Shown: positions 1-57,085 of the stretch, piece by piece
How positions within the stretch are numbered: the stretch's first letter is position 1
How the letters are laid out: each line of letters starts with the position of its first letter
Source: Trypanosoma brucei
Taxonomy: Eukaryota
Assembly (NCBI GenBank): GCA_000002445.1
Contig: CP000069.1
Coordinates: 32,001-96,000, forward strand
Reading direction: 5' to 3'
Length of the DNA stretch: 64,000 nt
Program-made: the position numbers and the translations under genes
The notes under the pieces: model-generated
Databases searched by the model: none
What the model was told of the DNA's origin: nothing
Seen by the model: the letters and a program-made list of their open reading frames with translations, nothing else

Positions 1-318
1 GAAATCTTATGTCCTAAGGAAGAATATCAAAAGAGGGAAAATAGAAATCAGTAAGATTACACTTCCAGACAGTTGGATGCTATAACAAGTTCCCGACAAA
101 ACCAAAACAATGCTTAAAAAGCAATGAAGGCACGCCAAGGTAGCGAGAGACGACTCGTTTATAATGTCACTGTAAACTGCGAGCAAATGATAGAAAGGGA
201 CAACCGACACGCTGGTGGGAAATGGTGTCACACAAACACGTATATGTATGTCATGTGTGTCGTTGTTTTCTTTGCTACTGACATTTCATTACGAAATATG
301 GATCCGGCTTTGATGTAG
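1..318 (-). repeat. Inverted copy of the conserved ~320-bp GRESAG4 5' flank. It is one arm of an inverted repeat; the partner copies lie at 9385-9700 and 53365-53680.
   Basis: Reverse complement of 1-318 matches 9385-9700 almost base for base. ORF 7..231(-) equals ORF 9469..9693(+), and ORF 124..318(+) equals ORF 9352..9576(-). Similarity stops at ~318/9385. The mirrored start codon would lie ~10 nt before position 1. Confidence 0.85.
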
Positions 319-702
319 TTATCGCATGCTCCATGTGTGTTTGTGTGGCTGCATTTGCTCATGTATAGTTGACCCTTTTAGTTTATTTTGTTGAATCCCC
401 TTAACCACATAACCCTTTTCATCTGTCCTCCATTTTGTAGAGGATACTTGCTTTCATTTGATTCTCTGCTGTTGGCTCCCCATCTGCAGCAGCCACCACA
501 TGATTGTCACAAGACATGCGCTCACTTATCATTTGTTATTACGTGTAATATGGGACAATATTTTTACATATACCACGCTTTAGCAGCCTTTTCCACCGAT
601 GTGCAATTCATCGTTTGTGAATTAAAAAGGGCTCACAATGTGAAAGACGCGAATGGAACATGTGACACCTATGCCATAAGAAGGGATTACGGGCGAAATG
701 TC

Positions 703-3700
703 AGCAAACTAATGGCGACACATTTGTGCATACTCTTACGCTATAGTACACGACATGAACGAAGAAATAATAAAAATAAACGAAAACAAATGAGTGTGCG
801 CTCCATTTAGATGACGAACAAACACTATTTCAGATGGACACACGTATCTGCGTTTGAATATTTGAATAGGTTGGTAGCTTCTGTGTTTGACACTAACACA
901 TTACTCGCAATGTTATCTTAACATCGAATAGTATATGAGTAGAAACAAACTAAATCAGCAATTACGAAATTGCTGTTATCATTACCGTGACACAAATAGC
1001 GCTAATGTTTAGAAGGTAACAACAATGGCAAAGAAGGGATGGAACACAACTACAGATAACAATATCGGCTCAATGACCGCTAAGAAATAAACATAATCAG
1101 TGGTTATTCACATGTTTAACGTCAGTTCCCTTGAGCAGAGGGACAAGAACACTTGGACACATCGCACACTTGCAGTGGAGTACAGGCATGCACACAATGT
1201 GAAGCATTAGCGTTGGCATCTTGTATACCACAATGTATTGTAGGCTATTGAAGTTTCTTTATCTTTAAAGTTTCATGAGCTGCCCATAGTGCTGGCACCT
1301 GCTATTCTGTTCGACACAGGTAGCAGTGTCTCCCATTTTCTCCAACCTTAAATGAGTTAGATACCGCATAATCATACAGATCATGTGCATTCGCTTCCGG
1401 TGTTGGAGGTGAAAGATCACATCTGCTGCACACAATTGCGTGGATTGACCACAAGAAGAAAAAGATATAGCTTGAAGCCACGTGTGCTGCAGCGAAATGT
1501 GTTTGTGTAGGGATACTCCCTTATCGTATGGATTGCCTTCCTATTTCCAAACATAATATTCAATGCTGGTGAATCATATCGTTCCAGTGAAACGCCATTT
1601 TAGCTGTGCAATTTACCTTTTAATTTACCTTCTCCCTCCCTGTGAGTTTATTTCTAACGAGAGAACGAAATTAAACCAAATTCAGCAATGATACACAATA
1701 GTCACTGCATGGAGTGAGATTGTCAGGTAATGTTCTTGAGAGCAATTGCTTCTTATAACGGAGTTACATCAGAGAAAACTCACACATTCATTACAGTGCA
1801 GAGAAAATGAACTGTCAATGAAGTCATCACACTTCATAAATACACTAACATCACAGAAATCAATACAGAGCTCACGAAGAGTACTTCAATGGACTCATTT
1901 CATGTGTAAATTATGCTCAGGAGGGTGAACGCACGGATAAACAAATATGTGTCATACAGACGGTGCCAGATGTGAGGGAACTAACCCTGAGAAATACTGA
2001 TTGCGCCAATCCACAGTAATTAGTGATATATCCGACGGACTCATGGTCAGATGGGGAAAACAATAGCAGCTGATAAATATGGAAGGGATAAGCACATACA
2101 AAGCCTTAAATATATTTGCGAAGTTTGAATAAACAAACAAACATATCAACGCCAATGTGTTTCTTTGTTTTATTGTGCAAAATGTATCAACCGTGATGGT
2201 GGACTAGTGACAAACGTATGACTGTAAATACTGCACCGAACCAGTAGGTGCCAGCAATTCAGTGTATCCATATATTACCACTCACTACCACCTTAGAACC
2301 TAATAACTAAGAAAAGAAGATAGCAATATTCAACATTGTAGAGGATAGACAATGAACATAGAAGCAGAAAAGTTTTTTACACAAACCATTCCCATCAAAA
2401 ACCTACAACTGCGTTAACAGAAGCAAGTACTGCTGCAAACAGGTCAGGACTGTTTCCTTCTTATATTTTTCATGTCGATTACTTTCTTATCACACTATGT
2501 CGTTCACTCACTCCAATATAAGAAAACTGCGACTGCTGTTAAAGTGTCTATCATTTCACATACACAGACTCAATGGTTCGCCTACCACTTGCGCTGTGTT
2601 CCCCATAGTGGCAATCTGTCATTCACAGTAAAGAAAGTTGATCTCGCATTTTTTGTTTCGTATCGACATTGACATCTCGGGTATCCGTGCTATCTTCAAT
2701 TAATGTTATCGCACACATACAAAGACGTTATGTCACAAAGTTCCTTCAACACTAGCATGCATAAGTTCAAGGACGACAATGAGAGCGCCCTGTTATACAG
2801 ACTAGTAAGCTGGCGGTACCTAATGCTGTACATGCACTTAAGGCGAACAGCAATGACTTCGATGTGACTACCATCCCTGTGGTATTCTACAATGTCTCAG
2901 AGGGGAAATTGTGCCCATATTTCATTTACATCATACTCACACTAAAATTTAACAAGCAATTACGGCACTAGAATATCTTCCTCCATTTGTCATCTTTCAA
3001 CAAAACATAACAATCATACTAATTCATGTTCCGAAGAATAAGCATGCACTAACCAAAGTCAATGTAATACATATTGTTCCTGAAACGCACCGAGAAAAAA
3101 TTCCACCCCCTCAGTTCACAAAGTTTCAGTAGACGGAGCACGAATTGTCACACACCAGAAGGTCATGGTCAAATGTTTTGAACCACAGGCTGATCCCTGG
3201 CAGAGCCTGACAATGAGGGCGAACTTCCCTTTGAAGTTTACATTTCATTTTTTGAAAGACAAAATCGACTACGAGCGTGGGTAATCCTTTCATTGGATGT
3301 TACGACCGTTTAAAGAAAAGGTCATCTATACTCAATATCAGGATTTATATTCAACCTTTGGGGTTGTAACAAGTGCGCTCAGTTCGTTTCCCCGTAGCGT
3401 GGCCCCGATCAGACGATTTACCATCAAACTCAGGCGCCCCTTCATCAGAGGGCGGCATGGTGTCCCCTACGCGGGTTCATTCAGTTTCCCTTGTATAAAA
3501 TGAGGAGAATACTCAAGGAGTTTAACGCATCGACCCACCACATGTAAACCACTGCCGCGTATTCTTGATAGGCGCATGTGCATGTAACCTTGCTGTTCCA
3601 CAATTCACGCAGCAACAGAGCTAAGTGACACCATCTCGTATGAATGTCAATGCGACCCTGCGGCACGTGTAGCACAGCCTCACCAAAGTTTCCCTCGCTT

Positions 3701-6700
3701 AACACCCTTTTACCAGCATTTGGCTCTTGTGCCTCGGCGCCACGGTCACCATCCTGCCACAATTATTCGAACCTCTCTCAGCTCTATCTCCGGTGCCTCC
3801 ACTTAGTCCGATTGCAACTTTAGACATTGCAGCTTCAGTTAAAAGTTGTCCTTTGCTCTCTCTGTTTGGAGTCGTCCGTTCGGTCGGGAAAAGGTTTCAC
3901 AGTTCCGCGATCAGACCTAAGTCTTCCAGTTTCAAGAACCTACGTGAAAAATGCGCCCACAGCCCGTGAAGCGATGATCTGCCCCTCACGGTATTTTCCG
4001 CCCCACATTCTTTGCGTAGTGCCTTTTGGGTCTGTCATTGTAGTAAATGCGGGGAAGTTTCTTTGGACCTTATGCCTGGGTTGCGGAATTGCTTTTTCAT
4101 TTTGTCTTCGTGATCGCACTGCTTCTGTTTGGTAAGGGAAGGTCGCTCCATGCATTTTGTCGGGAGGCGCGCGAGTTGGTGCGCCCTCAGAATCGGCCTT
4201 ACCAACTGGAATGTTCCGTCGGCCTCGGCTTTCTCAAGTGTTTTTCTTTCCAGCTTGTCCGCCTCCGGCGTGCGGGTGTGAGCACCGACGAGTGTGCAAA
4301 ATTTCCCCTTCGTTGAGTGTCCATGTGAAGGCGGAACGCCACGGCATCGATGGTATGGCCGCTCACTGGCAGCGTCGGCTGGGGCGAGCGCGCAGAGGTA
4401 ATATCAAAGAGCGCTCCTTCCATTGAATGTACCGGTGGTACTGTGTGCGGTTACTGTGGTTGATTTGCGCTGTTTTAGGGGAGGTTAGGCATGGACGCTG
4501 GATTTTGTTTGGTGCCCGCCTCGAATAGCTCTGAGTGGCAACTTTCCTCCGCTCTGGACATGATAAAGGAATATTCGTGACCATACCGTTATTTTCGTAG
4601 CAATGTGGAGCTCGCCATCGGCACACACACCCGCGTGAGGGATGTATGCGTTCAACGTGGAGTGCTGTCTTAGCTAGCGAGCCATTTTTATCCGGCTCAT
4701 AAGATGCCAGTCTATTATTTTCCCAGTATGTCAAAAAGATGGCTTCCCATCGTAACTATAAAACATTGCTCATCACCTTTGGTGCGGTAGCGGATCGGCT
4801 ATTCGTGTCGTGTGCTGCAGGGTATTTGCGGAACGTAAACAATACTCGTTTGTCTCGATCAAGACAAAAGAGAGAAAATATGACAATGACGGTAACAACT
4901 ATCTGCTTGCGCCATCGATACGCTCTAACTCACTTTGGGGGTGCTGCCGAAGGGTGCAAAAACCAACGGACAATGTAATAAGGTTGTAAATAATGATTAG
5001 AAAGTGAATGACCCAGTTTGTCTAAAATCTTCTGATCGGCCAGCCTCGGTTCAAATTATTTTTTGAGCATTTGGTTAGGGACGGACGATGAACGTAAAGA
5101 CGTTTAGTGCTGGTATAAAGGTACTGTCTGTGTGTGCAATTGGAGCCATATTTTCGCTACGAGGCACTAAGCGCTACAAAACATCATGGTAAAATTTACA
5201 TCCAGTCCCTGCCATGATTGTGAATGAAGCAAGAATGATATTAATTTAGAACTTGGCAGTGATTTACTGGCGGCAGATCTAGCGCTAGTAATTGTGTTAC
5301 TCATGGAGGCAGCGTGTTGTACACCCGTTTTGAGGAAAGTAACTACTCAAGATAATCTCATCAAATATAGGTATCCGTACCAGAATGTTGGTGGGGCTAC
5401 GAATTGCGATGCCTTGCGATGCCCATAAAATAATTTCCCGTGACACTACCTGCAACATGAGGTGATACTCCACTGCTCTCTCCTCGTAAGGGAATTGAGT
5501 ACAAGTTACGGAGAGTTAGTGAGTAATCGCCTTTCGTGGATTGGATAGGTAACAGATGGGCAATACCCAATGTCACTCACGGGATGTTACTGAGATGCCA
5601 TTTATGTCTCTCGATGGCACCTGCCGTTTTGTTGTTGGAGGCTCATTTTTCTTTGCTACCTCGTTGGCAATATTCCCAATTTAATTACCTCCTTCATATG
5701 CCTATAATTTTTTTTACTCCGAGAGACATCCCAATAAATTACTGCCTCTCTTTTTCTTCGCGACAAGCAGCTACCGGCATGTATAAAAGTGAAGAAAGGA
5801 AGAAGCACAAAACAGATACGCATCCCACTTACTGACTTAGAAAGTCATATCGCTTTTTTTTTTTGACTGAAGGTAAGCACCATACACTCAACAGCGCACA
5901 TAATTTTACCGTATGATGCAGCAGTGGGAGAGAGACCAAAAATGGAAAAAGAAAGGAAAAAGCGGATAGGAACTAATGCAGGACATGCCGGCTAACTAAC
6001 AGTGAGAGGACTATTGTTGGAGATGCTATGTGGTTAACAGGACTGTGTGGTAATGTTTAATTCCGATACTTCGAGTTCCTGTGGTTTCTACACTTAGTGA
6101 AACAATGCTTTCTGCACTGCCAAATTCCTCTATGGTTTTAACGCAAGTGTGCTTCTTTGTTGTTATTGTTGCTCTTAAAATATGAGGATAAAGAGAAGAA
6201 ATCAATTGAAAAGTGAATATGCTGAGTCTGTGCGTTTGAGACAAGGTACGACTGTGCTGTAGGTTCTGTGGCACTAGCCTTCCCTCGCTGAGCACAAATA
6301 TTTGCAACCGATGGTTTCAGATGTGACTCGGGGGCTGGTGACCGTAGCTGCAGTTTGTCTCAATGTGTAGGCACTATTTTAAATGACTTATACCGAACAA
6401 GGGATATCTTAAGAAGGAACTAATAGTGTCATAGGGACACATTATTTTGTTGTTGCGCTTATACATTGAATGTTTTGTTGCCGACAATAAAGGCTAACAT
6501 TGTGGAAGCAGTTACTGTAAAGAGATATTGTCCCCAAACGTGTATGCGGCCACTATTGATACGAAATTTGTTTTTCCACTAAAAGGTAAAGGAGCACCTT
6601 ATTCCGATACCCTCAGCTCACCACCGCAAGGTCGATAAACTTTTTAAAAGGTACAGTAAAACACAATGGTCAAATAGGATTTGTGTGTGTTTCGGCCTTT

Positions 6701-9700
6701 GGCTTCTGTATAGTGTGTTTATGCATGAGCGCCTACATCTCTCTCCGTGTGTGTGATAACTGCTCTTGCGTGCAGTACCATCGTTTGGCTGCTTGTCCCG
6801 TAACTCCATTCCGTAATGATCCCTCTGGAGTATTGATAGTATTTCAAACACGGCGTTACATCACGCATACGTTTACATCACACGACCTCCCTATGCTCAT
6901 TCACTCTCTCTGACGATGGAAATAAAGGGGGTATCAGGTATCACTTTTTAGTTACAATTGTTTAAGGCGCTTGTGCGTCGTGCTGCGCTTTGAATTTTGT
7001 GATATTTGCGGTCGCCTATCGATTGAACTGTGGTATTGGGCTGACAGGTCTGAAGGCACTTTCTTGTCCCTCATATTGTTTCCGTTTACTCTTATACCCG
7101 GTTGGGAAATTAACCTCCTTTTGATACTGAACCACAGTAGGATATGTGCTTGGTCGATATGATGGTGTTCCCGTTTCCCCCCCCCCCCCTCTGATATTTC
7201 ATTTGGATTGTTCTAAAGTTTTGTTGTTTTTTTTTTTAATGCCATACACTGCGTGGATACTGCTTTTAATTGTCAAATAGAGCATTTTTCGTTACTTTAG
7301 GTTTCGGTTCTTTTTCCTTTTCGGAGGGAAGCCCGGGTTAGTCTCAGATTAATGGCTGTTGCTTGTACACCGTCACTGCATTGTACACGCTAATGTTGAG
7401 TCTTACATCATACCGTTTTTTGTCCTCTCTATTTTCTGGTGTTGTATCCGATGATTTGTATCACTATGTTTTCTCGGATAGAGCAGTTCCACGCTTCGAT
7501 TTTTGATGGCCCATGCTGCATCGATACATGAGTCTATTTACCTGACATTTTTGTTTCTTCCCGTTGGCACAGCTAGAACAGTGCTCCTTATTCCTTACTG
7601 ATTAAAGGAAGAGACTTACCGGTTTTGTATTTACCCCAGGAGGGAATGACACGTTTCTACTTCCAGTGCTCTTCATGCCATTCAACGCTACCAATATTAC
7701 CAAATTTTTTTTTCGTGGAAATATCCTTATGGTATCATTTTTTTCTTTCTGGGGTTATATGGACTTGTGATCTTGCTTACAAACCCCCCTTTTAACCATT
7801 ACTGGATAGCGAGGTTAGTGTTTCGCCACAAGCGCCTTAGGGGTTTCAGAGATCTACTGCTGATATTCCAAAGCGCTGAGAGTGACAGCAGCAAAGAAAT
7901 GAGCTAAAAAAGAATGAGATGAGTGATGTGACGGAGTTGCCATATTGAGTGATACCTCGCGAGTGTAGCGTTGCAGCTCCTTCACAATTGTTGGGTTTCT
8001 TCTGTTTGAAGCCACAGCAAGGCTCATATACTCTGCGGGATGCTTCTAGGTTGCAGACTTTGCTTCCCACAGGTTTCCTGTAAAATGTTTTGTGTCAGCC
8101 TTGGTAGTCTGACACATGTTTACGAATTCAACAGCGTGTATGTCGCTGCACACGACGACCGATTTTATATTTGGCGATGTGGGAGGGTTGATGTTGCACT
8201 AGGGATACGATATTGGCCAATTCACTAGCCATGCCAAGAGTCACACTGTACAGCATTGTTATCACACTTTTGCCGCACAAGAACGGGACTCGTCACAGCA
8301 CTCCAGTGGCGATTTAAACCATGCTATGTGTAATGGATAGCGGACACGTGATGATGAGCTTCCCTTCTCGCGACAGAAAAAACGAAAAAAAGACGGTTCT
8401 TGGTGACAACGTTGTATTCATCTGCTGTTGAGAATTATATGCGAAACATGCAGAGAACCACAACTTATGCGTATGTGCGTTGTTGCTGTGTTTTTTTTTT
8501 TTGCTTGTGTGCCACAGGCATGTGCGAACAGACGACACAGGTGATCAGCATCCAGTGAGGTACGTTATGCATGTGAAGGTAGCGCTTTCCCTTTGCCGGT
8601 AATCTGCACCGATGAACATACGCAGCGACCACCGCATGCGCCTCGTTCTGCTGCGCTTTCGCAACGATGGATCAGTTGTTGCAGGTGAAGAGAAACGTAA
8701 GGAGATTGCGTGTAGCGAAAATAAGTGTTACGGTTGCGCTCTCTGGGTGCCAACACCGTGGTAGTCAGCGAGGATATAATGGACGGATCCCGTCGTGTCG
8801 GACTGTAAGTTACCCTGCTCTGCAGAAGTGGGTTTGGGAGACGGCGACGGTTACTTATACGGTTTTGCCGCATTGGTCAGGATGTTTCATGAAGTTAGTT
8901 GACCGACGTATGAGTTGTGGGGATGCCGTATGCCAGTACAGATATTCTGCTGCTTTACACTGCTAACGTAAAATGGCGTCCAAAGAATGGAACCAGGCTC
9001 CATCTCACACAAACAGCTGCGGCACTGTTAGACCCACGGAATCGGGTACGATCCAACACATTTCGTACCTGCAGATCGCTGTAGGATGCCTCCGCCACAG
9101 ACAGTTATGACTCATCTACCCTGCAAACGCCTGATCATTCCATGGCTCTGCCGCTACGATATGGCGAGTTGCGCCTTATGTTTTTAGCAATGTGACAGAG
9201 ATGTCCATTAGGTAAGCAAGAAATTCTTTACTCCCATGAAATATGTGCTTGCAACGGAGAGTCTCAAACCCCATCACCATGGTAGGTACAAAGGGAATAA
9301 TAGGTGTCTGAATGCATGAATTTAGTGAATACACCACCAGGGCACTTACGACTATCGTTCTGCCCTCAACTCAAACGAAAGCCACATCAAAGCCGGATCC
9401 ATATTTCGTAATGAAATGTCAGTAGCAAAGAAAACAACGACACACATGACATACATATACGTGTTTGTGTGACACCATTTCCCACCAGCGTGTCGGTTGT
9501 CCCTTTCTATCATTTGCTCGCAATTTACAGTGACATTATAAACGAGTCGTCTCTCGCTACCTTGGCGTGCCTTCATTGCTTTTTAAGCATTGTTTTGGTT
9601 TTGTCGGGAACTTGTTATAGCATCCAACTGTCTGGAAGTGTAATCTTACTGATTTCTATTTTCCCTCTTTTGATATTCTTCCTTAGGACATAAGATTTCA

Positions 9701-12700
9701 CACACGAAAAGTGTCACACATTCCCGAAAATATGAGTTGGCAGGAAGGTGGTGGAAGAGGATGTGTGTACCCCCATGGAAACTGCAGGCGGAACCTTACC
9801 GCAAGGAGCCCTGCAAGGCGTTACAGCAAGTACAAGCACTCACCTGTCATTACTGCTATATCACTGCTACACTTGTTGCCTTTGCTACTCATGTGGATGC
9901 CACCTGTGTGCGCGGAAGCGAGTAATGTGACGGTAAAAGTGCTATCCATGATGTACAGCCTCGGTTTCACCACTCCTGAAGTTAACGCCATTAATGCCGG
10001 CTTTAACGCATCACTGAGTGCCCACAGCTGGAAGACGGGCTCTAATGCGACAATATCTGTCATCCGTCCCCCATCACCCAATGCGACAGTTGAGGAGATA
10101 TTTCAGCATGGAATGAATCAAAGTGAAGGGAAGTTATTAGTTGTATTCGGGCCCCTGGGTACTAATCACGTCGCGTGGGTCAGTGATAAACTAAAGGAAC
10201 ATGATCTTGTTGCCCTAGCTCCCGTTGCGTACTCCAGTGAGGTCCGTGGTTGGAACCCTCACCTCTATTTCATAAGTGTCGAACCCAATGCTGAACTCCT
10301 CGCCCTCATTCGTTATGCTGTTGTTTACCTCCGTGTCCCACGAATAGGTATGATGCACGTGAAGAGCAGCACCGCCAGTATGGGACCGTATGAGTTTACT
10401 CTGCAGATATTGGAAATGATGGGTCGCGAGCTGTGCGGAATGTTCGTTGTGAAGGAGAGTGAAAATCAAAATATCTCTGAGGATGATTTGAACACCAGGT
10501 GGAGACAATTTGTTGCTACGCGCCCGCAGGCTATATTGCTGTTTTCTTCCCTGGGTAATACAGCAAAGTGGTTCATCAAGAAGGTAGCACAGGACAACCG
10601 CACTGCCAATGCGTATCTTCTTTCTACTTCCTTGCAGCAACATTTTTTGATCAAGATGTGGCGTGAGGCATTGGCGTTAGCTAATCGTACATTTACTCCT
10701 GGACAGCTGATCACAACTGGAACAGTGCCGCTCGCTAACGATACTCGGTTTTCACTGATTCGGCACTTCGAGCATGACATGGACAACTACCTCAGTACAA
10801 ACACTGACTGGAACTTTTTTAAGAACCCCGATCACTACCTTGAGGACGACAACGCAGGTGAGATGATGGTGTATGGGTGGCTTGCAGGAGAAGTTCTCTT
10901 CCAGGCTCTGAACAACGCTCCACAACTGACGAACCGTACGTCATTCAGGGAATCTCTATACAAGCAGCGTCGCTACGTGATTGATGACCTTGTGGTTGGT
11001 GACTTTGGTGGTGAGTGCGATGAAGCCGTTGCATTACAGGGTGCCATGTGCAAATGCAATCAAGGTGGCAGTATGGTATATATGAAGAGTATAGTGAATG
11101 GCTTCCGACCAGCGCCTTTGTGGGAAGGACATCTAACGTGGGGTGTATCAGAGTGCTCGAGTGCCAATGTACATGTGGGTGCGCCATTGAGTGGCCTCTT
11201 TTTGCTTCTCGCAGATAATAAAATTGCATTACGTGCGAGCAGGAAGTGGTTCCTTGGTGCCGAGGTTCATGGCAAGGAAGCGGAGAATATTGACAACAGA
11301 ATATTTTTCCATCCCCTAACAGTATCTTCAGAGAATGTGACGCAATCCCTTGAGCAAGTACAGGATAACAGGGATGTATCTGCAGTATTTGGTATCATGC
11401 CTGGAGGGCTTCTGGATCGAAAAGATTTAGTGTTCATCAGTCCTATGACACTTCGACCCCGCATGAAACTGTTTAGGAGAAACGTAATACACTTACTGCC
11501 TGTCCTTGCGCAGCAATTTTATGTGCTTGCTGTGTATCTCTCCAACGCTTCTTCCAGAGGAGTAAATGCATTCATACGTAGTGAGCAAGCAGGGGAGATC
11601 AGTAGCCTGCTGTACAGGTCATTGGTTACGTTTGGTGTGTCGCTTGATTCCAGTAAGACACTTGGTGATGGTGACCCGATGGCGTCGTATCTCTCGGCTA
11701 ATAAAGATGTGTTTACTATTGGACTCACTCTCACTGACGTTGCTGCGGTTGCGCGGCACCTTCAGGCACACCGCAGGGCACGTGTATTCATTCCATTCAA
11801 TGACCTTGCAATGTACTACGATGAGTTTGTGGCTGCGTTTAATGCGAGTAAAGAGTCTGTCGCTAGCTCAGAGCGGCTCCTATTCGCGACGAGTTTTCCA
11901 CACTGGGCGGAGAAGGACACGAAATCAGATGTGGTTGCGAGTTTCCATCGCATTGTGAATGAATCGCATTGGGATCCACTAACGTTCTTAGGTTTTGTTA
12001 CCACTCGGCTGCTTCAAGTGATTCTCCCGAATATGAAGAAAGTGAATGCAGAGCTGCTGGCAGACCGCATTTACACGGAGTCCAACATCAAAGTGGATGA
12101 CATGCGATTTGGACCCTTCAATGATGTGGAATGTGTTTCTGGTACGAGTGTTTCGGCAAATGAGTGTGCCTCAAACTTTGGAGCCACAAACATTTCTGTA
12201 TGGTCGATGGCGCGTGTGCTGAATTCAAGTGTGCCCATATTGCAACGCGGCATGACACCGTCTATGGACTATGTTATTCCGCAAGAGGGTCAACTCACAC
12301 AGTCACAGATAGCTGGAATAATTTCTGGGTGTGTATCCGCCTTGTTATTATTTATTGCCCTAGGTGGGCTCCTACGCATCACCCTGCGGAATGCCCGTGA
12401 TAACAATCTTGCACCCAAGGAACCAACGGACCCTGTGACACTAATATTTACTGACATTGAGAGCAGCACTGCGTTGTGGGCTGCACACCCTGAGCTGATG
12501 CCTGATGCCGTCGCCGCGCATCATCGTATGGTCCGTTCATTGATTGCGAGGTATGACTGCTACGAAGTCAAAACTGTAGGGGATTCGTTCATGATAGCGA
12601 GTAAGAGTCCTTTCGCTGCCGTCCAACTCGCACAGGAACTACAGCTGCGTTTCTTGCATCATGACTGGGGAACAAATGCAGTTGATGATTCTTACCAGCA

Positions 12701-13110
12701 GTTGGAGCAGCAGCGTGCGGAGGAGGGCGAGAAGTACACACCGCCAACTGCACGGCTGGATCCTGAAGTGTACAGCCGTTTGTGGAATGGCCTGCGTGTA
12801 CGTGTTGGAATCCACACCGGGTTGTGCGATATCCGACACGATGAAGTGACGAAGGGATATGACTACTATGGGCGGACTCCAAACATGGCAGCAAGGACAG
12901 AGAGTGTAGCAAATGGTGGTCAGGTGCTGATGACGCGCTCAACATACCTGTCACTGTCAGCTGAGGAGCGTGAGCAAATTGATGTCACTGCACTTGGTGC
13001 TGTTACACTTCGTGGTGTGCCGAAACCTGTGGAAATGTACCAGTTGAATGCCGTGCCTGGTCGCAACTTTGCTGCATTACGGCTGGACCGTGAAATTAAG
13101 GATGAAGACG
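703..13110 (+). repeat. Segmental duplication, copy 1: ORF-poor spacer plus GRESAG4-A ectodomain, TM and most of the cyclase domain.
   Basis: Collinear with 44680-57085 at a constant offset of about 43,975 bp. Examples: ORF 1746..1928 vs 45722..45904, and GTG-ORF starts 9711 vs 53684. Identity is high, with small indels and homopolymer-length differences. Similarity begins near 703/44680 and decays in the C-terminal tail coding region. Confidence 0.9.
9649..9686 (+). promoter_or_regulatory. Polypyrimidine tract followed by AG. Predicted spliced-leader trans-splice acceptor for GRESAG4-A.
   Basis: The sequence ctgatttctattttccctcttttgatattcttccttAG ends 46 nt upstream of the first ATG (9732). 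This is the typical kinetoplastid polyY-AG acceptor geometry. Confidence 0.55.
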
Positions 13111-26953: not shown

Positions 26954-27023
26954 CGCCAGGGACAAAGAAATATAGCCGCCCTCACCAAGGAAATAATGAG
27001 CGACGGTACGTAACTTGTACTAT

Positions 27024-30000: not shown

Positions 30001-30056
30001 CAATTTGTTTAATTATACGCAATAATGTGCACTTTGTTTAATTATACGCAATAATG
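27024..30056. repeat. AT-rich satellite, block 1. The units are a 20-bp unit TATACGCAATAATGTGCATT and 29-bp variants TATACGCAATAA(T/C)GTGCAATTTGTGCAAT and TATATGCAATAA(C/T)GTGCAATTTGTTTAAT. They are arranged in irregular higher-order repeats.
   Basis: Direct inspection shows ~3 kb of head-to-tail units of ~30% GC with point variants. There is no ORF signal. It starts ~60 bp after the ingi-1 5' TSD. Confidence 0.9.
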
Positions 30057-40195: not shown

Positions 40196-43100
40196 TTATG
40201 CCTCATGTTCCGCAAAGTGGTTTGCAATAATAATCAGCGACGCGCTCCTCAGCGTGCTGACTGACCGTTCGGTGCCACTGGATGCGCAGAGATCTACCAC
40301 ACGTCCAACTTTAACCGCGATGCGGCATATGATTTCCTCACAGCATTTATCGTCCCACTTGTCTTTCGCTCCAGCAGGAAACGGCACATGCCAACGCTCA
40401 CACAAGGGAACGAGCAACTTCCGCCGTTGTGCTGCGGCGAATGTGCCCAGAAGAGCTTGTAGAGAACTGGCGATCATCAGCGAAGACCCATTCATTCCTC
40501 CGCGAACGGAGCTTACATCGCTGGCTGTTGCGGAGGAACAATCTGACTTGTCGAAGTACTCGCGGTCTAATTGCAGTGCGGTGAAGACACGACCAGGCAC
40601 GGCATTCAACTGGTACATTTCCACAGGTTTCGGCACACCACGAAGTGTAACAGCACCAAGTGCAGTGACATCAATTTGCTCACGCTCCTCAGCTGACAGT
40701 GACAGGTATGTTGAGCGCGTCATCAGCACCTGACCACCATTTGCCACACTCTCTGTCCTTGCTGCCATGTTTGGAGTCCGCCCATAGTAGTCATATCCCT
40801 TCGTCACTTCATCGTGTCGGATATCGCACAACCCGGTGTGGATTCCAACACGTACACGCAGGCCATTCCACAAACGACTGTACACTTCAGGATCCAACCG
40901 TGCAGTTGGCGGTGTGTACTCACATTCTCCCTCCGTGCATTGCTCCTCAAACTCACGGTAGGAATCATCAATCGCATTTGTTCCCCAGTCATGATGCAAG
41001 AAACACAGCTGTAATTCCTGTGCGAGTTGGACGGCAGCGAAAGGACTCTTACTCGCTATCATGAACGAATCCCCAACAGTTTTGACTTCGTAGCAGTCAT
41101 ACCTCGCAATCAGTGAACGAATCATACGATGATGCGCGGCGACGGCATCAGGCATCAGCTCAGGGTGTGCAGCCCACAACGCAGTGCTGCTCTCAATGTC
41201 AGTAAATATTAGTGTCACGGGGTCAGTTGGCTCTCTAGGTGCACGGTTGTTGTTACGACTTAGGCGCAACAAATACAACATCGTTGCTACCAATGCCGCA
41301 ACGACCGCCAGAGCGATGAGAGCGCCAGCGATAAGGCCTGCAAGTTCGGCGTTCGTGAGTTGGCCTTCTTGAGGATTAAGGTATTTTATCGACGGTGTCA
41401 CTGGCGAGGTAAGTGGCAACACTGAGGCGTCTAACGCCCGAGCCGCGGACCACAGGGAAATGCGCGTCGCGCCGTAGTTAACTATACAGCTTTCCGCGTC
41501 ACTGGCATCCCCACCGAGGGGCTCGGCGCAGGTATCACTGGCAAAGGGGCCATACCGCATATCGTCAACGGCAATGACCGATTGTGCAAAGATGGTCTCG
41601 GTCAGAGTCTTCGGGGTCACCTTTTCCGTGAATTGAAGGACAGTCCTCGTGAACCTTGCGGTAGCGAACCCAAGCAACCTCAGTGGCGTCCAAACGGAAG
41701 GAGCACGTAGCGCAGCGTGGAACCTTCGTACGGTCTCTGATGTTGTGTTGACGTCTGCCCAGTGGGGCAGACTCGTGGGGAAGAGAAGGCGGTAAGCGCT
41801 CGGGCTGCCATTAAATGTGCGCGCGATACCACTGTACATCAAGGCCATGTCAAAGAACGGCACGAATACATACACATCAGGGTTAGCATCAAGGTGATCT
41901 TTAAGCTCTCCGACATCAGCGACGTTGATTCCGATGACAATGGCATATCCGTCTTTCGGAAGCTTCTCTTTCAATGCCGCAACCTTGTCTAACGTAGCAA
42001 ATGAGTCCAGCGAGGTGCCGGTGGCCAAAAACGTTCTTCGAATTGCGTCCTCGACTCCCTGCGCGTTCCTGCCACGAAATAAAACGGACGCTCTTCCAGA
42101 CGCTTTGCGCACCAGATACCCCGAAATCACAAATAACTGCTGTTCCAGCGTTGGTGACAGGTAGATCACATTGCTTCCGTTATGGCGAAGTTCCGGATTT
42201 AGCGTTATAGGGTCAATAAATACGACATCCGCCGTCGCAAGCATTTCTTCACTCACTGCGCCAAATAGAGCCGTAACAACCTTAGTGTCCAACTCGTGCA
42301 TCAGTGCTGAAGATGCAGCGCTTGACGCCGAAGCTCTACCCTGTAAAAACAAGCGGTCGGATTGACCAAACGTTCCATCGCCAGTAAGGACACTAACGCC
42401 ACCGTATATCTCCCCATTGGCTCTTAGTGCAGCCGGGTTATCCCACAAAAGAAATATCAAACCATTCACGGGAGACTCCACTCTCATGCCATCGTAGTAA
42501 CAACTAGACGGATTGAATACAGTTAACCCGTTGCGAATGTCGACCAATGCGTAATCGCTTGATAGAGAGTTCAGGTAAACCACGTTCCCCCCCTGGTTGC
42601 AGTTGCAGGCCGCTCCGTAATCAGCTGCCGCTGACCCGCATTCCCCACCGAAGTCACCAATCACAAGGTCGTTAATGACGTACCGGCGTTGCCTGTAAAG
42701 CGATTCCATGTATTCCTTCCTGCTACTAAGAAACTCGCGATTCGCTAGGGATTGGGACAACACCTCACCAACGATCCACCCGTACATCACTGGCTCTCCG
42801 TCTACACCGTAGAGATCTGTGATATTCAAAGAACTGTACTGGCCCGAGTTGGTGTGGTCGTTTAAGTACGACTCCACATCACTTCGGCAACGACGAACAG
42901 CGGCGTATTCAGTGCTGGTCGGCCTGGGGACGACTCCTGTTAATATCACTTGGTCGGTCTTCAACGTGACGTTGAGAGCATCAGCTGCCCACCGCCACGC
43001 ACTTTCGATTTCAGCCTCATGCGGTAAAGTGGAAAGGAAATGCGCATCCCGTGTGCGGTTATCAACAATCATATTCTTTATGAACTTTGCTGTATCTTCT

Positions 43101-43831
43101 GACAGTGGTGAAAAAATGATCACACCCTGCGGATGCGTTTCTGCAAACCGGTTCCATGCAGTGTCAAATTCGGAAGAATCCGCTTCCCCCGTTACAGAGC
43201 TCTTTACAGTGAACACGCCACACAATTCACGACCCATATGCGACATCAGCTCCACAGCTAGCAAGTACTCGTTGTCCCCAAATGAGACATTCTGCAGGTA
43301 CATGAAACCAATCCGTCGCAAACGCAGTTGTGTTACTGCAAAACGAAGCAGTGTCAGTAACTCAGCAACGGGCGAAACAAATAGAAAGTAGAGATTTGGG
43401 TTCCACCCACGCACAGAGTTTGAACCAGTGTAGGGACCAAGAGTGACCAAGTTTTCCTGTTTAAGCAAAGGCATGAAAGATAATGCGTCAGCGTCATTAA
43501 GGGGCCCAACCGACACAAATAACTCATCCCTGTTTTGTTCTATGGCCGTCTGCAAGCCATCAACGGGTTCGGCGTCGTACGATGACGGATGAACAACTTC
43601 CACACTCACATTCGACTCACGAAGCCACTGCTTTGATGCCATTGATGCATTGAAACCAATGCCGATCGCATCATTGTAATGTGCAGGAACAGCGGCCCCG
43701 TACAACAAATAATATACTTTAACGTGTATATCATCTGCTGCACCAGACAACGATGCCGCTGATACGATCATTAGGAGCACCAAAGACATCATCTTTGTGC
43801 CGGGCATGTGGCGCCACTGCAGGACACACAT
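40196..43831 (-). CDS. GRESAG4: Receptor-type adenylate cyclase, GRESAG4 family, copy B. Its ectodomain is divergent; its catalytic domain is near-identical to copy A at the nucleotide level.
   Basis: ORF-track 40196..43909 starts at TTG. In-frame ATGs lie at 43831, 43807 and 43792/43789. The signal peptide MMSLVLLMIVSAASLSGAADD favours 43792; 43831 is the first ATG. The TM is LAGLIAGALIALAVVAALVATMLYLL. The catalytic block runs from VTLIFTDIESSTALW… to …EMYQLNAVPGR. Confidence 0.88.
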   Translation of the reverse strand: MCVLQWRHMPGTKMMSLVLLMIVSAASLSGAADDIHVKVYYLLYGAAVPAHYNDAIGIGFNASMASKQWLRESNVSVEVVHPSSYDAEPVDGLQTAIEQNRDELFVSVGPLNDADALSFMPLLKQENLVTLGPYTGSNSVRGWNPNLYFLFVSPVAELLTLLRFAVTQLRLRRIGFMYLQNVSFGDNEYLLAVELMSHMGRELCGVFTVKSSVTGEADSSEFDTAWNRFAETHPQGVIIFSPLSEDTAKFIKNMIVDNRTRDAHFLSTLPHEAEIESAWRWAADALNVTLKTDQVILTGVVPRPTSTEYAAVRRCRSDVESYLNDHTNSGQYSSLNITDLYGVDGEPVMYGWIVGEVLSQSLANREFLSSRKEYMESLYRQRRYVINDLVIGDFGGECGSAAADYGAACNCNQGGNVVYLNSLSSDYALVDIRNGLTVFNPSSCYYDGMRVESPVNGLIFLLWDNPAALRANGEIYGGVSVLTGDGTFGQSDRLFLQGRASASSAASSALMHELDTKVVTALFGAVSEEMLATADVVFIDPITLNPELRHNGSNVIYLSPTLEQQLFVISGYLVRKASGRASVLFRGRNAQGVEDAIRRTFLATGTSLDSFATLDKVAALKEKLPKDGYAIVIGINVADVGELKDHLDANPDVYVFVPFFDMALMYSGIARTFNGSPSAYRLLFPTSLPHWADVNTTSETVRRFHAALRAPSVWTPLRLLGFATARFTRTVLQFTEKVTPKTLTETIFAQSVIAVDDMRYGPFASDTCAEPLGGDASDAESCIVNYGATRISLWSAARALDASVLPLTSPVTPSIKYLNPQEGQLTNAELAGLIAGALIALAVVAALVATMLYLLRLSRNNNRAPREPTDPVTLIFTDIESSTALWAAHPELMPDAVAAHHRMIRSLIARYDCYEVKTVGDSFMIASKSPFAAVQLAQELQLCFLHHDWGTNAIDDSYREFEEQCTEGECEYTPPTARLDPEVYSRLWNGLRVRVGIHTGLCDIRHDEVTKGYDYYGRTPNMAARTESVANGGQVLMTRSTYLSLSAEEREQIDVTALGAVTLRGVPKPVEMYQLNAVPGRVFTALQLDREYFDKSDCSSATASDVSSVRGGMNGSSLMIASSLQALLGTFAAAQRRKLLVPLCERWHVPFPAGAKDKWDDKCCEEIICRIAVKVGRVVDLCASSGTERSVSTLRSASLIIIANHFAEHEA

Positions 43832-44679: not shown

Positions 44680-47600
44680 GGAAACTAATGGTGACACATT
44701 TGTGCACACTCTTACGCTATAGTACACGATATGAACGAAGAAATAATAAAAATAAAGGAAAACAAATGAGTGTGCGCTCCATTTAGATGACGAACAAACA
44801 CTATTTCAGATGGACACACGTATCTGCGTTTGAATATTTGAATAGGTTGGTAGCTTCTGTGTTTGACACTAACACATTACTCGCAATGCTATCTTAACAT
44901 CGAATAGTATATGAGTGGAAACAAACTAAATCAGCAATTACGAAATTGCTGTTATCATTACCGTGACACAAATAGCGCTATTGTTTAGAAGGTAACAACA
45001 ATGGCAAAGAAGGGATGGAACACAACTACAGATAACAATATCGGCTCAATGACCGCTAAGAAATAAACATAATCAGTGGTTATTCACATGTTTAACGTCA
45101 GTTCCCTTGAGCAGAGGGACAAGAACACTTGGACACATCGCACACTTGCAGTAGAGTACAGGCATGCACACAATGTGAAGCATTAGCGTTGGCATCTTGT
45201 ATACCACAATGTATTGTAGGCTATTGAAGTTTCTTTATCTTTAAAGTTTCATGAGCTGTCCATAGTGCTGGCACCTGCTATTCTGTTCGACACAGGTAGC
45301 AGTGTCTCCCATTTTCTCCAACCTTAAATGAGTTAGATACCGCATAATCATACAGATCATGTGCATTCGCTTCCGGTGTTGGAGGTGAAAGATCACATCT
45401 GCTGCACACAATTGCGTGGATTGACCACAAGAAGAAAAAGATATAGCTTGAAGCCACGTGTGCTGCAGCGAAATGTGTTTGTGTAGGGATACTCCCTTAT
45501 CGTATGGATTGCCTTCCTATTTCCAAACATAATATTCAATGCTGGTGAATCATATCGTTCCAGTGAAACGCCATTTTAGCTGTGTAATTTACCTTTTAAT
45601 TTACCTTCTCCCTCCCTGTGAGTTTATTTCTAACGAGAGAACGAAATTAAACCAAATTCAGCAATGATACACAATAGTCACTGCATGGAGTGAGATTGTC
45701 AGGTAATGTTCTTGAGAGCAATTGCTTCTTATAACGGAGTTACATCAGAGAAGACTCACACATTCATTACAGTGCAGAGAAAATGAACTGTCAATGAAGT
45801 CATCACACTTCATAAATACACTAACATCACAGAAATCAATACAGGGCTCACGAAGAGTACTTCAATGGACTCTTTTCATGTGTAAATTATGGTCAAGAGG
45901 GTGAACGCACGGATAAACAAATATGTGTCATACAGACGGTGCCAGATGTGAGGGAACTAACCCTGAGAAATACTGATTGCGCCAACTCACAGTAATTAGT
46001 GATATATCCGACGGACTCATGGTCAGATGGGGAAAACAATAGCAGCTGATAAATATGGAAGGGATAAGCACATACAAAGCCTTAAATATATTCGCAAAGT
46101 TTGAATAAACAAGCAAACATATCAACGCCAATGTGTTTCTTTGTTTTATTGTGCAAAATGTATCAACCGTGATGGTGGACTAGTGACAAACGTATGACTG
46201 TAAATACTGCACCGAACCAGTAGGTGCCAGCAATTCAGTGTATCCATATATTACCACTCACTACCACCTTAGAACCTAATAACTAAGAAAAGAAGATAGC
46301 AATATTCAACATTGTAGAGGATAGACAATGAACATAGAAACAGAAAAGTTTTTTTACACAAACCATTCCCATCAAAAACATACAGCTGCGTTAACAGAAG
46401 CAAGTACTGCTGCAAACAGGTCAGGACTGTTTCCTTCTTATATTTTTCATGTCGATTACTTTCTTATCACACTATGTCGTTCACTCACTCCAATATAAGA
46501 AAACTGCGACTGCTGTTAAAGTGTCTATCATTTCACATACACAGACTCAATGGTTCGCTTACCACTTGCGCTGTGTTCCCCATAGTGGCAACCTGTCATT
46601 CACAGTAAAGAAAGTTGATCTCGCATTTCTTGTTTCGTATCGACATTGACATCTCGGGTATCCGTGCTATCTTCAATTAATGTTATCGCACACATACAAA
46701 GACGTTATGTCACAAAGTTCCTTCAACACTAGCATGCATAAGTTCAAGGACGACAATGAGAGCCCCCTGTTACACAGACTAGTAAGCTGGCGGTACCTAA
46801 TGCTGTACATGCACTTAAGGCGAATAGCAATGACTTCGATGTGACTACCATCCCTGTGGTATTCTACAATGTCTCAGAGGGGAAATTGTGCCCATATTTC
46901 ATTTACATCATACTCACACTGAAATTTAACAAGCAATTACGGCACTAGAATATCTTCATCCATTTGTCATCTTTCAACAAAACATAACAATAATACTAAT
47001 TCATGTTCCGAAGAATAAGCATGCACTAACCAAAGTCAATGCAATACATATTGTTCCTGAAACGCACCGAGAAAAAATTCCACCCCCTCAGTTCACAAAG
47101 TTTCAGTAGACGGAGCACGAATTGTCACACACCAGAAGGTCATGGTCAAATGTTTTGAACCACAGGCTGATCCCTGGCAGAGCCTGACAATGAGGGCGAA
47201 CTTCCCTTTGAAGTTTACATTTCATTTTTTGAAAGACAAAATCGACTACGAGCGTGGGTAATCCTTTCATTGGATGTTACGAGCGTTTAAAGAAAAGGTC
47301 ATCTATACTCAATATCAGGATTTATATTCAACCTTTGGGGTTGTAACATGTGCACTCAGTTCGTTTCCCCGTAGCGTGGCCCCGATCAGACGATTTACCA
47401 TCAAACTCAGGTGCCCCTTCATCAGAGGGCGGCATGGTGTCCCCTACGCGGGTTCATTCAGTTTCCCTTGTATAAAATGAGGAGAATACTCAAGGAGTTT
47501 AACGCATCGACCCACCACATGTAAACCACTGCTGCGTATTCTTGATAGGCGCATGTGCATGTAACATTGCTGTTTCACAATTCACGCAGCCACAGAGTTA

Positions 47601-56600: not shown

Positions 56601-57085
56601 AACTCGCACAGGAACTACAGCTGCGTTTCTTGCATCATGACTGGGGAACAAATGCACTTGATGAGTCCTACTGGGAGTTCGAGCAGCAGCGTGCGGAGGA
56701 GGACGAGAAGTACACACCGCCAACTGCACGGTTGGATCCTGAAGTGTACAGTCGTTTGTGGAATGGCCTGCGTGTACGTGTTGGAATCCACACCGGGTTG
56801 TGCGACATCCGACACGATGAAGTGACGAAGGGATATGACTACTATGGGCGGACTCCAAACATGGCAGCAAGGACAGAGAGTGTAGCAAATGGTGGTCAGG
56901 TGCTGATGACGCATGAGGTTTACCTGTCACTGTCAGCTGAGGAGCGTGAGCAAATTGATGTCACTGCACTTGGTGATGTTGCACTTCGCGGCGTGAATGA
57001 TCCTGTGGAAATGTACCAGTTGAATGCCGTGCCTGGCCGCAACTTTGCTGCATTACGGCTGGATCGCGAATTCTTTGATGAAGAC
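44680..57085 (+). repeat. Segmental duplication, copy 2: spacer plus GRESAG4-C.
   Basis: See copy 1. The same set of spurious short ORFs recurs (47274/3297, 48340/4363, 50005/6026, 52534/8565 and others). Confidence 0.9.
53621..53659 (+). promoter_or_regulatory. Polypyrimidine tract + AG. Predicted SL trans-splice acceptor for GRESAG4-C.
   Basis: Same sequence and position relative to the ATG (53705) as upstream of copy A. Confidence 0.55.

Follow-up and report, generated by a model that had tools for sequence, protein, structure and literature searches.

Domain-level mosaicism among three GRESAG4 adenylate cyclase genes on Trypanosoma brucei chromosome 6: a case for segmental gene conversion

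The stretch of DNA analyzed here, referred to below as the window, comprises 64,000 nucleotides of chromosome 6 of Trypanosoma brucei brucei TREU927 and, as the original prediction had it, contains three intact open reading frames (ORFs) for GRESAG4 receptor adenylate cyclases, denoted copies A, B and C (Table 1). All three combine two periplasmic-binding-protein/Venus flytrap-like domains (PF25495 and PF25493, E-values from 1e-50 to 1e-133), a single transmembrane (TM) helix, recognized by eye in the translation as the one hydrophobic stretch of 22-26 residues per copy, and a class III cyclase domain (PF00211, E ~1e-44 in Pfam) that matches the structures 1FX2 (GRESAG4.1, E = 3.5e-137) and 1FX4 (GRESAG4.3, E = 8e-130). 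Residues 92-137 of the query, which canonical class III cyclases leave unaligned, represent the trypanosome-specific insert (Delta-subdomain). The proteins of copies A and B match XP_845149 and XP_845150, respectively, without a difference; both entries carry the annotation 'GRESAG 4, putative' and belong to the 1.62-Mb chromosome 6 of TREU927. The three genes lie outside a telomeric VSG expression site, which identifies them as GRESAG4 and not ESAG4. Among the window ORFs of at least 150 amino acids, Pfam matches are limited to the three cyclases and ingi elements. The window is rich in repeats: besides a duplication of 12.4 kb and a tandem array of 5.4 kb, it contains inverted repeats and two ingi elements. 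A and B are 27 kb apart in inverted orientation, with retroposons between them.

Table 1. Features of the GRESAG4 locus, in coordinates of the window.
Feature	Position	Strand	Description
GRESAG4 copy A	9732..13538	+	XP_845149.1; two PBP-like domains and Guanylate_cyc by Pfam
GRESAG4 copy B	40196..43831	-	XP_845150.1; ORF and Pfam
GRESAG4 copy C	53705..57469	+	ORF and Pfam
TM helix of A (IAGIISGCVSALLLFIALGGLL)	12309..12374	+	read from sequence
TM helix of B	41344-41267	-	read from translation
TM helix of C	56285-56350	+	read from translation
Catalytic tract in A (residues 897-1111)	12420..13063	+	95.0% nt identity to B, 92.7% to C
Catalytic tract in B	40590..41233	-	A/C/GRESAG4.1-type cassette between ectodomain/TM and tail of B's own lineage
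Catalytic tract in C	56396..57039	+	same clade, with C-specific patches
Divergent island	12701..12735	+	inside the tract, in the trypanosome-specific insert of the cyclase fold
Sub-tract probably exchanged most recently	12736..13063	+	A/B differences 3/328 nt
A-type C-terminal tail	13096..13535	+	history unrelated to those of the C and B tails
12.4-kb direct segmental duplication, copy 1	706..13111	+	spacer and gene A to the catalytic-domain end
12.4-kb direct segmental duplication, copy 2	44682..57087	+	spacer and copy C to the catalytic-domain end
Antisense ORF, 121 codons, GTG start	12589..12954	-	within the A catalytic region
Equivalent antisense ORF	40699-41064	+	copy B
Equivalent antisense ORF	56565-56930	-	copy C

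Protein relatives were collected with full-length queries, a C-terminal-third query having yielded short fragments alone; the comparison DNA was a limited set of paralogues from T. b. gambiense, T. equiperdum and T. congolense, with TREU927 represented by the window copies. Copy A (100% identical to P0096) joins a GRESAG4.1-like ectodomain and catalytic domain to a tail that we term A-type. Copy C, whose tail is of the GRESAG4.1/T. congolense type, corresponds in structure and position to the single chromosome-6 gene of T. b. gambiense (P0099), the locus of which (L003) matches window positions 53359-57360 and 58048-58495; the T. b. gambiense gene adjoins the haptoglobin-haemoglobin receptor and procyclin genes, and the similarity of the T. 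b. gambiense locus to the window begins at 9388. Copy B forms a lineage of its own. Genes A and C, as far as the end of the catalytic domain, are the 3' parts of the two copies of the 12.4-kb duplication, which are 96.7% identical and whose 3' end coincides with that domain boundary. Each copy carries a ~9-kb ORF-poor spacer upstream of the GRESAG4 gene, with no ORF of at least 150 amino acids and hence no LRR gene like that of T. b. gambiense and T. congolense, where the chromosome-6 gene of the former and P0102 of the latter show the same LRR-gene-GRESAG4 arrangement.

A sliding-window comparison of A and B departs sharply from uniform divergence: nucleotide identity is generally 45-55% and reaches 96-100% per 100-nt window solely over A 12413-13063. 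The prediction that the ectodomains differ at most positions (~38% amino acid identity) and that the shared stretch measures ~650 bp is borne out by this profile. The catalytic regions had also been described as nucleotide-identical, which they are not: the tract of 644 nt (A 12420-13063 = B 41233-40590) contains 32 A/B differences, with a longest exact match of 155 nt; self-BLAST aligns 12402..13063 with 41251..40590. Nor does the similarity start directly after the TM helix. The juxtamembrane segment of 15 codons that follows the helix of A (12375-12419) is still divergent; the differences private to B end at A 12419 and restart at A 13064, placing the 5' breakpoint at 12419/12420, at the first residues of the crystallized domain. 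The tract covers approximately residues 8-222 of the 235-residue 1FX2 (GRESAG4.1) catalytic-domain construct. The 34-mer originally quoted as its beginning is found in A alone, because position 12434 is T in A and C in B. On the 3' side there are two separate breakpoints, that between A and B at 13063/13064 and that between A-type and C-type sequence at ~13095.

Synonymous and nonsynonymous differences (pS and pN, Nei-Gojobori) follow the same modular pattern. For A and B, pS drops from 0.76 (ectodomain) to 0.11-0.13 (catalytic domain) and rises again to 0.83-0.88 (tail). Of the 4-fold degenerate sites, 7/104 (7%) differ in the tract; the corresponding figures are 119/171 (70%) for the ectodomain and 15/18 (83%) for the tail (Fisher p = 1e-28). 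Between distinct lineages, T. congolense counterparts included, the catalytic pS is saturated at 0.61-0.83 and 51-70% of the 4-fold sites differ, as against a pS of 0.11-0.15 and 7-8% for B versus the A clade; the catalytic pS is 0.77 for A and T. congolense P0102 and 0.68-0.79 for B and its own ectodomain relatives, and control pairs of lineages show 71-73% catalytic nucleotide identity with exact matches of at most 29 nt. Given that synonymous sites saturate in the catalytic domains of other lineages, conservation at the protein level does not explain the A-B tract. Of all intra-brucei protein pairs whose ectodomains are less than 45% identical, 344 in number, A-B shows the highest catalytic identity (94%, median 74%), and B is a member of each of the six top-ranking pairs. 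Deep lineages are poorly resolved by the catalytic domain at the protein level, the pN of A being 0.145 to T. congolense P0102 versus 0.126-0.160 to other lineages. A parallel case comes from the chromosome-4 array of T. b. gambiense, where the catalytic domain and the tail are identical between copies a and d (pS 0.000) but the ectodomain pS is 0.29. For P0105/P0139-type genes, whose catalytic domains are 83-84% similar to the A clade in amino acid sequence, the synonymous sites gave no evidence of a recent exchange as the cause, the pS of 0.63-0.71 being near saturation.

The phylogenetic position of B changes along the gene. In neighbor-joining (NJ) trees, the leaf nearest to its ectodomain (100/100 bootstraps) and to its tail (99/100) lies in the chromosome-4/T. 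congolense P0110 group, but the leaf nearest to its catalytic domain lies in the A/C/GRESAG4.1 clade (98/100). The 48 informative sites of the tract in five sequences give an Rm of at least 10 and a PHI-type permutation p = 5e-5, and a runs test shows that site patterns are clustered in blocks (p = 1e-5); the NJ-bootstrap, permutation and four-gamete tests were our own implementations, in place of GENECONV/RDP/GARD. With G for the T. b. gambiense copy, the blocks are AG/BC at 12428-12699, AC/BG at 12708-12732 (twelve consecutive sites) and AB/CG at 12830-13061. The tract itself is therefore a mosaic of several events. Its divergent island concentrates 14 of the 32 A/B differences in 35 nt and occurs as two haplotypes, one in A and C and the other in B, T. 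b. gambiense P0099 and a T. equiperdum fragment (Teq6_frag), with 14/35 differences for A-B, 2/35 for A-C and 3/35 for B-Tbg6_99. Farther downstream, the block 13000-13063 is shared by A and B only, and the variant at 13000-13025 (GAVTLRGVPKP) is unique to these two copies. The A-B tract as a whole is ~5% diverged, similar to A-C, so that most of it does not reflect a very recent event.

Copy C does share the ectodomain of A, at 89.2% amino acid identity (~90% had been estimated). Its catalytic sequence was predicted to be clearly different, and it carries the variant motifs THHYLIRSLIGRYKCYEVK and MTHEVYLSLS, yet it belongs to the same clade at 92-93% nucleotide identity (53 differences from the B tract). 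Its divergence from A and B lies in discrete patches and not throughout (in A coordinates, 12512-12557, 12937-12944 and 13000-13025), which recur in other paralogues and strains. The C-terminal tails, held to be unrelated in all three copies, align at 33-48% amino acid identity and have a CERW motif in common, although their synonymous sites are saturated and they fall into different tail lineages. The A tail is related to that of a paralogue from chromosome 4 whose ectodomain differs (T. b. gambiense P0139, and P0105); it is 67.6% identical in amino acid sequence to the P0105 tail and 89.8% to that of P0097, and between A and P0139 the tail pS is 0.41 and pN 0.19, with an ectodomain pN of 0.42. 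P0139 and its neighbor have the ectodomain and catalytic domain in common but not the tail. The tail is thus a third module with its own history.

The antisense ORFs in the catalytic regions of A and B, reported as identical over ~80 amino acids, both exist; their products are identical at 107/121 positions, and 3 of the mismatches fall within the first 74. We rule them out as genes: they have GTG starts in a eukaryote, recur in all three copies and track the identity of the sense strand. They are a by-product of the conserved sense sequence and play no part in the mechanism.

Could the tract, with no recombination involved, be simply a domain that purifying selection, or constraint on codons or RNA, has kept much more uniform than the ectodomain and tail? 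At the protein level, no other part of these cyclases is indeed as conserved as the catalytic domain, which is 66-81% identical even to genes of T. cruzi and T. vivax and 83-87% conserved among T. brucei isoforms (PMC6027212). However, its synonymous and 4-fold sites are saturated in all other lineage pairs and not in B versus the A clade, the B catalytic domain groups apart from the relatives of the B ectodomain and tail, and incompatible sites are clustered in space, so that we give this explanation practically no credence. The repeat-rich locus would also lend itself to an assembly artefact, in which near-identical catalytic reads of neighboring paralogues were collapsed or mis-joined into a chimeric B; this, too, is highly improbable given that the B tract differs from every window copy (32 differences to A, 53 to C) and has its own combination of haplotype blocks, that the B frame is intact, that the full B protein occurs without a single mismatch in a separate 20-kb contig labelled Schistosoma mansoni, evidently trypanosome contamination, and that similar mosaics are present in independent assemblies of T. 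b. gambiense and T. equiperdum.

More serious consideration is due to an origin of B by gene fusion, whereby an A-like duplicate acquired a new ectodomain and, separately, a new tail, or unequal or illegitimate crossovers joined three fragments. The cluster is duplicated and rearranged, and the 12.4-kb duplication stops exactly at the end of the catalytic domain; T. equiperdum has, downstream of an A-type gene, a truncated GRESAG4 copy made up of a partial catalytic domain and a C-type tail; and tails clearly swap between lineages. Against this, fusion requires that ectodomain and tail were replaced independently and yet both by the same foreign lineage (nearest to the chromosome-4/T. congolense P0110 group), where conversion needs a single internal tract, and the flanks of B have no similarity to those of A and C. 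Accordingly, we regard fusion as improbable. It would still amount to domain mosaicism driven by recombination and differs from the favored explanation only in route.

Very probably, then, copy B is a chimera, and homology-limited gene conversion between paralogues is the best explanation of the A/B/C mosaics. The original reading, segmental conversion with breakpoints at both ends of the catalytic region, is supported by the discontinuity in identity, the homogenization of synonymous sites, the incongruence of the trees, the clustering of incompatible sites and the separate histories of the tails, all of which are directly observed. In the proposed history, the ectodomain, TM helix, juxtamembrane segment and tail of B would derive from one old GRESAG4 lineage, nearest to the chromosome-4 array and T. 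congolense P0110, and the 644-nt catalytic domain would have been overwritten through homologous recombination, the partner being a member of the GRESAG4.1-like clade on chromosome 6 (A, C and their relatives) and the mode most likely non-reciprocal gene conversion. Prior to the exchange, usable nucleotide homology was probably confined to the catalytic domain (~72% between lineages versus ~50% elsewhere), so that tracts would start and stop at its edges and breakpoints would match the domain boundaries; homology is thus the likely cause of their placement. Later short conversions within the clade would account for the block-by-block change in the sequence nearest to B (C, the T. b. gambiense copy or A), with the latest exchange joining A and B over the last 328 nt of the tract; the tail would have been exchanged independently. 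Parsimony points to B as the recipient, as one odd gene against at least six of the A clade, to a member of that clade, without specifying the copy, as the donor, and to a non-reciprocal exchange. A pre-exchange B, a reciprocal product or a B orthologue in another strain did not emerge from the full-length protein search, in which the next relative is 56% identical overall, and the event is therefore neither directly dated nor polarized; a comparison of the flanks of B with the intergenic regions of the T. b. gambiense, T. equiperdum and T. congolense loci gave matches in coding regions only. For classical RAD51-dependent conversion, an identity of 72% between lineages with exact matches of at most 29 nt is low, and microhomology or an unsampled intermediate paralogue may have been needed for initiation.

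Gene conversion and mosaics in tandem GRESAG4 arrays of TREU927 have been published (Jackson 2007, BMC Evol Biol 7:54, PMC1855330, Fig. 4; Jackson et al. 2010, PLoS NTD 4:e658, PMC2854126, Table 2). In these studies, partial, mostly non-reciprocal exchanges between paralogues were detected with GENECONV, SISCAN, RETICULATE, PHI and GARD, all six of the six GRESAG4 arrays tested gave PHI p < 0.001, and ectopic conversion with family members outside an array was very rare (PMC1855330, PMC2854126). The family, genome and process are the same here. However, those arrays consist of near-identical tandem duplicates, whereas A and B are inverted and belong to deeply diverged lineages, and their tract, unlike the exchanges in the arrays, matches one protein domain. 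We found no published account of the A/B event or of segmental conversion of the catalytic domain in this family in the open-access literature. The boundaries fit the known receptor adenylate cyclase architecture of a variable ectodomain, a conserved catalytic homology domain and a variable C-terminal tail (Bieger & Essen 2001, 1FX2/1FX4; Salmon 2018, PMC6027212): the tract approximates the crystallized domain, the switch between A-type and C-type tails coincides with the end of the construct, and the island falls in the trypanosome-specific insert. Catalytic conservation is read as functional in the literature, whereas the additional similarity of B to the A clade reflects ancestry shared through recombination, because synonymous sites are homogenized. 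Thus, A, B and C are a new instance of a published kind of gene conversion and not a new phenomenon.

Mosaic VSG genes of T. brucei are assembled within the expression site in the course of an infection; their donors are silent genes, often pseudogenes, and antibodies exert the selection. These mosaics resemble the present genes in their short, homology-guided tracts between diverged paralogues, in mosaicism at the domain and sub-domain levels (PMC2854126 and established knowledge) and in the separate histories of the N- and C-terminal domains. In contrast, the GRESAG4 partners are all intact and chromosome-internal, the timescale would be evolutionary, and the module that seems to have been copied is the conserved and not the variable one.

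A broader reading, in which the family is a combinatorial three-module system (a sensor ectodomain, a cassette for catalysis and dimerization, and a tail with a role in localization or regulation) with cassettes homogenized among otherwise unrelated receptor lineages for compatibility in heterodimerization, tails reshuffled to re-target the receptors and breakpoints at domain edges favored by selection beyond the limits set by homology, is rather unlikely in our judgment. The extreme position of B among the 344 pairs and the swapping of tails between lineages faintly hint in this direction, as does, at the protein level only, a second tier of similarity, in which ESAG4 (P0108) and GRESAG4.3 are 84-89% identical to the GRESAG4.1 clade in the catalytic domain and 35-43% in the ectodomain.

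The current picture of gene-family evolution in trypanosomes, in which such mosaics are already established, is unchanged by these findings. In practical terms, because ectodomain, catalytic domain and tail have separate histories, trees of whole proteins or of catalytic domains alone mislead for the ~80-member adenylate cyclase family of T. brucei, and RNAi or probes designed against the catalytic region of any one of the three copies would strike them all, together with the GRESAG4.1 group. With respect to the evolution of the family, conversion can bridge deeply diverged receptor lineages within a cluster, beyond tandem near-identical copies, and offers a way of keeping the signalling module uniform as the sensing modules diverge.

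Alignment of the three GRESAG4 (receptor adenylate cyclase) genes A, B and C in 100-nt windows shows that A/B identity rises from 45-55% over the ectodomain to 96-100% at approximately A 12413-13063, and then falls to 25-55%; divergence along the alignments is thus not uniform but drops abruptly at a discrete tract. B-specific differences end at 12419 and restart at 13064, and the tract corresponds to approximately residues 8-222 of the 235-residue 1FX2 construct, the crystallised catalytic domain of GRESAG4.1. Its 5′ edge therefore lies 15 codons past the transmembrane helix (12309-12374), not immediately after it as predicted. Nor are the A and B catalytic regions nucleotide-identical, as had been claimed: 32 of 644 positions differ (95.0% identity), with 14 of the differences in a 35-nt island (12701-12735) and only 3 in the final 328 nt; the longest stretch without a mismatch measures 155 nt, and the 34-mer quoted in the original prediction is found in A only. 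As proposed, C has the ectodomain of A (89.2% amino acid identity, against a predicted ~90%) and carries the variant catalytic motifs ascribed to it. The antisense ORFs, described as identical for ~80 aa, exist; they match at 107 of 121 positions, have GTG starts and are also present in C, which marks them as by-products. The A/B/C observation is therefore confirmed in part: it is real, although its wording was overstated.

Features of the GRESAG4 cluster and its surroundings (window coordinates)
Feature	Position	Strand	Basis or remark
Long ORF A	9711-13538	+	ORF scan, Pfam-type domain content
Long ORF B	40196-43909	-	ORF scan, domain content; B gene given as 40196-43831
Long ORF C	53684-57469	+	ORF scan, domain content; C gene given as 53705-57469
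ingi-type non-LTR retroposons, two copies	21707-26688 and 32741-37723	-	96.9% identical
AT-rich tandem repeats, ~5.4 kb	27012-32431		between both ingi copies; periods 29, 49, 107 nt; unit TGTGCAATTATACGCAATAATGTGCAATT; 72-79% matches
12.4-kb direct duplication	706-13111 and 44682-57087		96.7% identity, window self-comparison
Duplicated ~9-kb spacer	316-9384 and 44682-53353		no ORF of at least 150 aa
316-nt segment directly 5′ of ORF A	9384-9699; also 53353-53672		inverted at window start, 1-316, 99.7%
2-kb segment 3′ of A	13959-15966		inverted 3′ of C, 61984-64000, 98%

Each of the three genes encodes a pair of periplasmic-binding-protein-like domains, a single hydrophobic helix and a class III cyclase domain. 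The A-B interval holds both ingi-type retroposons, the second retaining intact long ORFs for endonuclease, reverse transcriptase and RNase H followed by C2H2 zinc fingers and the first split into shorter ORFs, plus the AT-rich array. The direct duplication extends from the ORF-poor spacer into the gene and ends where the catalytic domain ends. The inverted 316-nt copy points to a head-to-head A-like gene left of the window, probably XP_845148. Members of the pairs (left gene, A) and (B, C) point apart across the duplicated spacer, which is a possible divergent strand-switch region; the T. equiperdum version of this spacer is reversed with respect to the GRESAG4 gene compared.

When neighbour-joining trees of 45 family proteins were bootstrapped separately for each region, the nearest leaf of B fell in the group of chromosome-4 proteins and T. 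congolense P0110 for both ectodomain (100/100) and tail (99/100), and in the A/C/GRESAG4.1 group for the catalytic domain (98/100). Of the 344 intra-brucei pairs whose ectodomains are less than 45% identical, A-B ranks first in catalytic identity (94%; median 74%), and B is a member of all six highest-ranking pairs. The most parsimonious account is a single internal replacement within B. Protein searches found no close relative of B elsewhere, the next match being 56% identical.

A variable ectodomain, a conserved catalytic domain and a variable tail constitute the textbook layout of the family. The key rival is that strong selective constraint alone makes the catalytic domains look alike, this being the conserved part of the adenylate cyclase family (PMC6027212), with amino acid identity still at 66-81% when T. 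cruzi and T. vivax genes are compared. Comparison DNA came from T. b. gambiense (its chromosome-6 counterpart and two arrays on chromosome 4), T. equiperdum (two loci) and T. congolense (two genes, of which P0102 shares the LRR-gene-GRESAG4 arrangement of the T. b. gambiense chromosome-6 gene). In between-lineage control pairs, however, catalytic synonymous sites saturate freely (Nei-Gojobori pS 0.61-0.83), with 71-73% nucleotide identity and exact matches of at most 29 nt, whereas the catalytic pS of B against A, C and the T. b. gambiense and T. equiperdum copies is only 0.11-0.16. Outside the tract, the same method gives the A-B ectodomains a pS of 0.76 and their tails one of 0.83-0.88. At 4-fold degenerate sites, counted only in codons with the first two bases identical, A and B differ at 7 of 104 positions in the tract, 119 of 171 in the ectodomain and 15 of 18 in the tail (Fisher p = 1e-28), a tract-versus-flank contrast that the control pairs lack. 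Protein-level selection cannot yield this pattern and, because of the control pairs, pure selective constraint is excluded.

Synonymous-site homogenisation, tree incongruence and clustered incompatible sites all support the segmental gene conversion originally predicted, and conversion between cluster paralogues is the best-supported mechanism. It would be limited to the catalytic domain, the sole stretch with appreciable between-lineage nucleotide homology, so that heteroduplex would be unable to spread into the flanks; we infer this homology limit, along with the direction and non-reciprocity of the conversion. Conversion without crossover would keep the 27-kb interval between the mutually inverted A and B intact. 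The weak point of the account is the low starting homology (72%), which suggests either microhomology initiation or an unsampled intermediate donor. A fusion route to B is possible but needs two events. That misassembly made B a chimera is unlikely, given the unique haplotype combination of its tract, the recurrence of the whole B protein in a separately assembled contig labelled Schistosoma mansoni, and similar mosaics in other assemblies. The S. mansoni-labelled proteins identical or nearly so to B and C (XP_018644076.1, Smp_112590 = XP_018644553.1, XP_018644084.1 and Smp_186530; P0133, P0098, P0154 and P0159 among the family proteins) sit on 5-20 kb contigs and look like T. brucei contamination of that assembly. 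The 90% identity cluster of C contains no TREU927-named protein.

The A/B tract is mosaic in its own right. Site partitions among A, B, C and the T. b. gambiense chromosome-6 copy (G) fall into blocks (runs test, p = 1e-5), namely AG/BC at 12428-12699, AC/BG at twelve consecutive sites (12708-12732) and AB/CG at 12830-13061; with the T. equiperdum copy added, 48 informative sites imply at least 10 recombination events by the four-gamete test (PHI-type p 5e-5). The C patch at 12512-12557 recurs in a T. equiperdum A-type gene and the TREU927 protein P0097, and the island haplotype of B is shared by the T. b. gambiense copy, GRESAG4.1, GRESAG4.3 and a T. equiperdum fragment; only A and B have the 13000-13025 variant. 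Differences between the A and C ectodomains cluster strongly too (index of dispersion 4.9, p = 1e-4), with A, C and the T. b. gambiense copy each in turn being the odd one out. A truncated GRESAG4 copy in T. b. equiperdum (L006, CM010677.1, 17492-21010), 3.7 kb 3′ of an A-type gene, begins within the catalytic domain at the counterpart of C 56558, runs on through a C-type tail and the C downstream flank at 97.4% (BLAST), and combines the B island haplotype with the C patch at 12937-12944. The sole residue differing in the contaminant-contig C, Arg to Cys at window position 56624 (C codon 981, equivalent to A 12648), lies at a site that switches between paralogue haplotypes, with T in B and the T. 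b. gambiense copy, and could be allelic or a further micro-conversion.

Calling the three C-terminal tails unrelated goes too far: they share homology, although their lineages differ. A-type and C-type tails diverge at ~13095, where the 1FX2 construct ends, 31 nt 3′ of the 3′ breakpoint of B. C shares its tail type with T. b. gambiense, GRESAG4.1 and T. congolense P0102, whereas the A tail is related to that of P0139 from T. b. gambiense chromosome 4 (pS 0.41, pN 0.19), whose ectodomain is unrelated (pN 0.42) and whose tandem neighbour has its ectodomain and catalytic domain in common with it but not its tail. These histories make the tail a third module that is exchanged on its own. In the T. 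b. gambiense chromosome-4 array L002 (FN554967.1), the catalytic domains and tails of copies a and d are identical (pS 0.000) with an ectodomain pS of 0.29, and the catalytic domains of copies b and c are identical as well, so the 3′ part of the gene is homogenised in another GRESAG4 array too. Expression-site ESAG4 (P0108) and GRESAG4.3 (P0111) show 84-89% catalytic identity to the GRESAG4.1-like clade (P0096-P0101), at the protein level only and above the intra-brucei median of 74%, against just 35-43% in the ectodomain; this may reflect cassette sharing of an older date.

Gene conversion has been shown in TREU927 GRESAG4 arrays, with ectopic conversion judged rare (Jackson, 2007; PMC1855330), and all six GRESAG4 arrays compared subsequently proved significant by PHI and had multiple breakpoints by GARD (Jackson et al., 2010; PMC2854126). 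In contrast to those arrays, the exchange in B spans deep lineages and matches one domain, and the cluster is non-tandem and retroposon-disrupted. The case of B is a new instance of the same kind of process.
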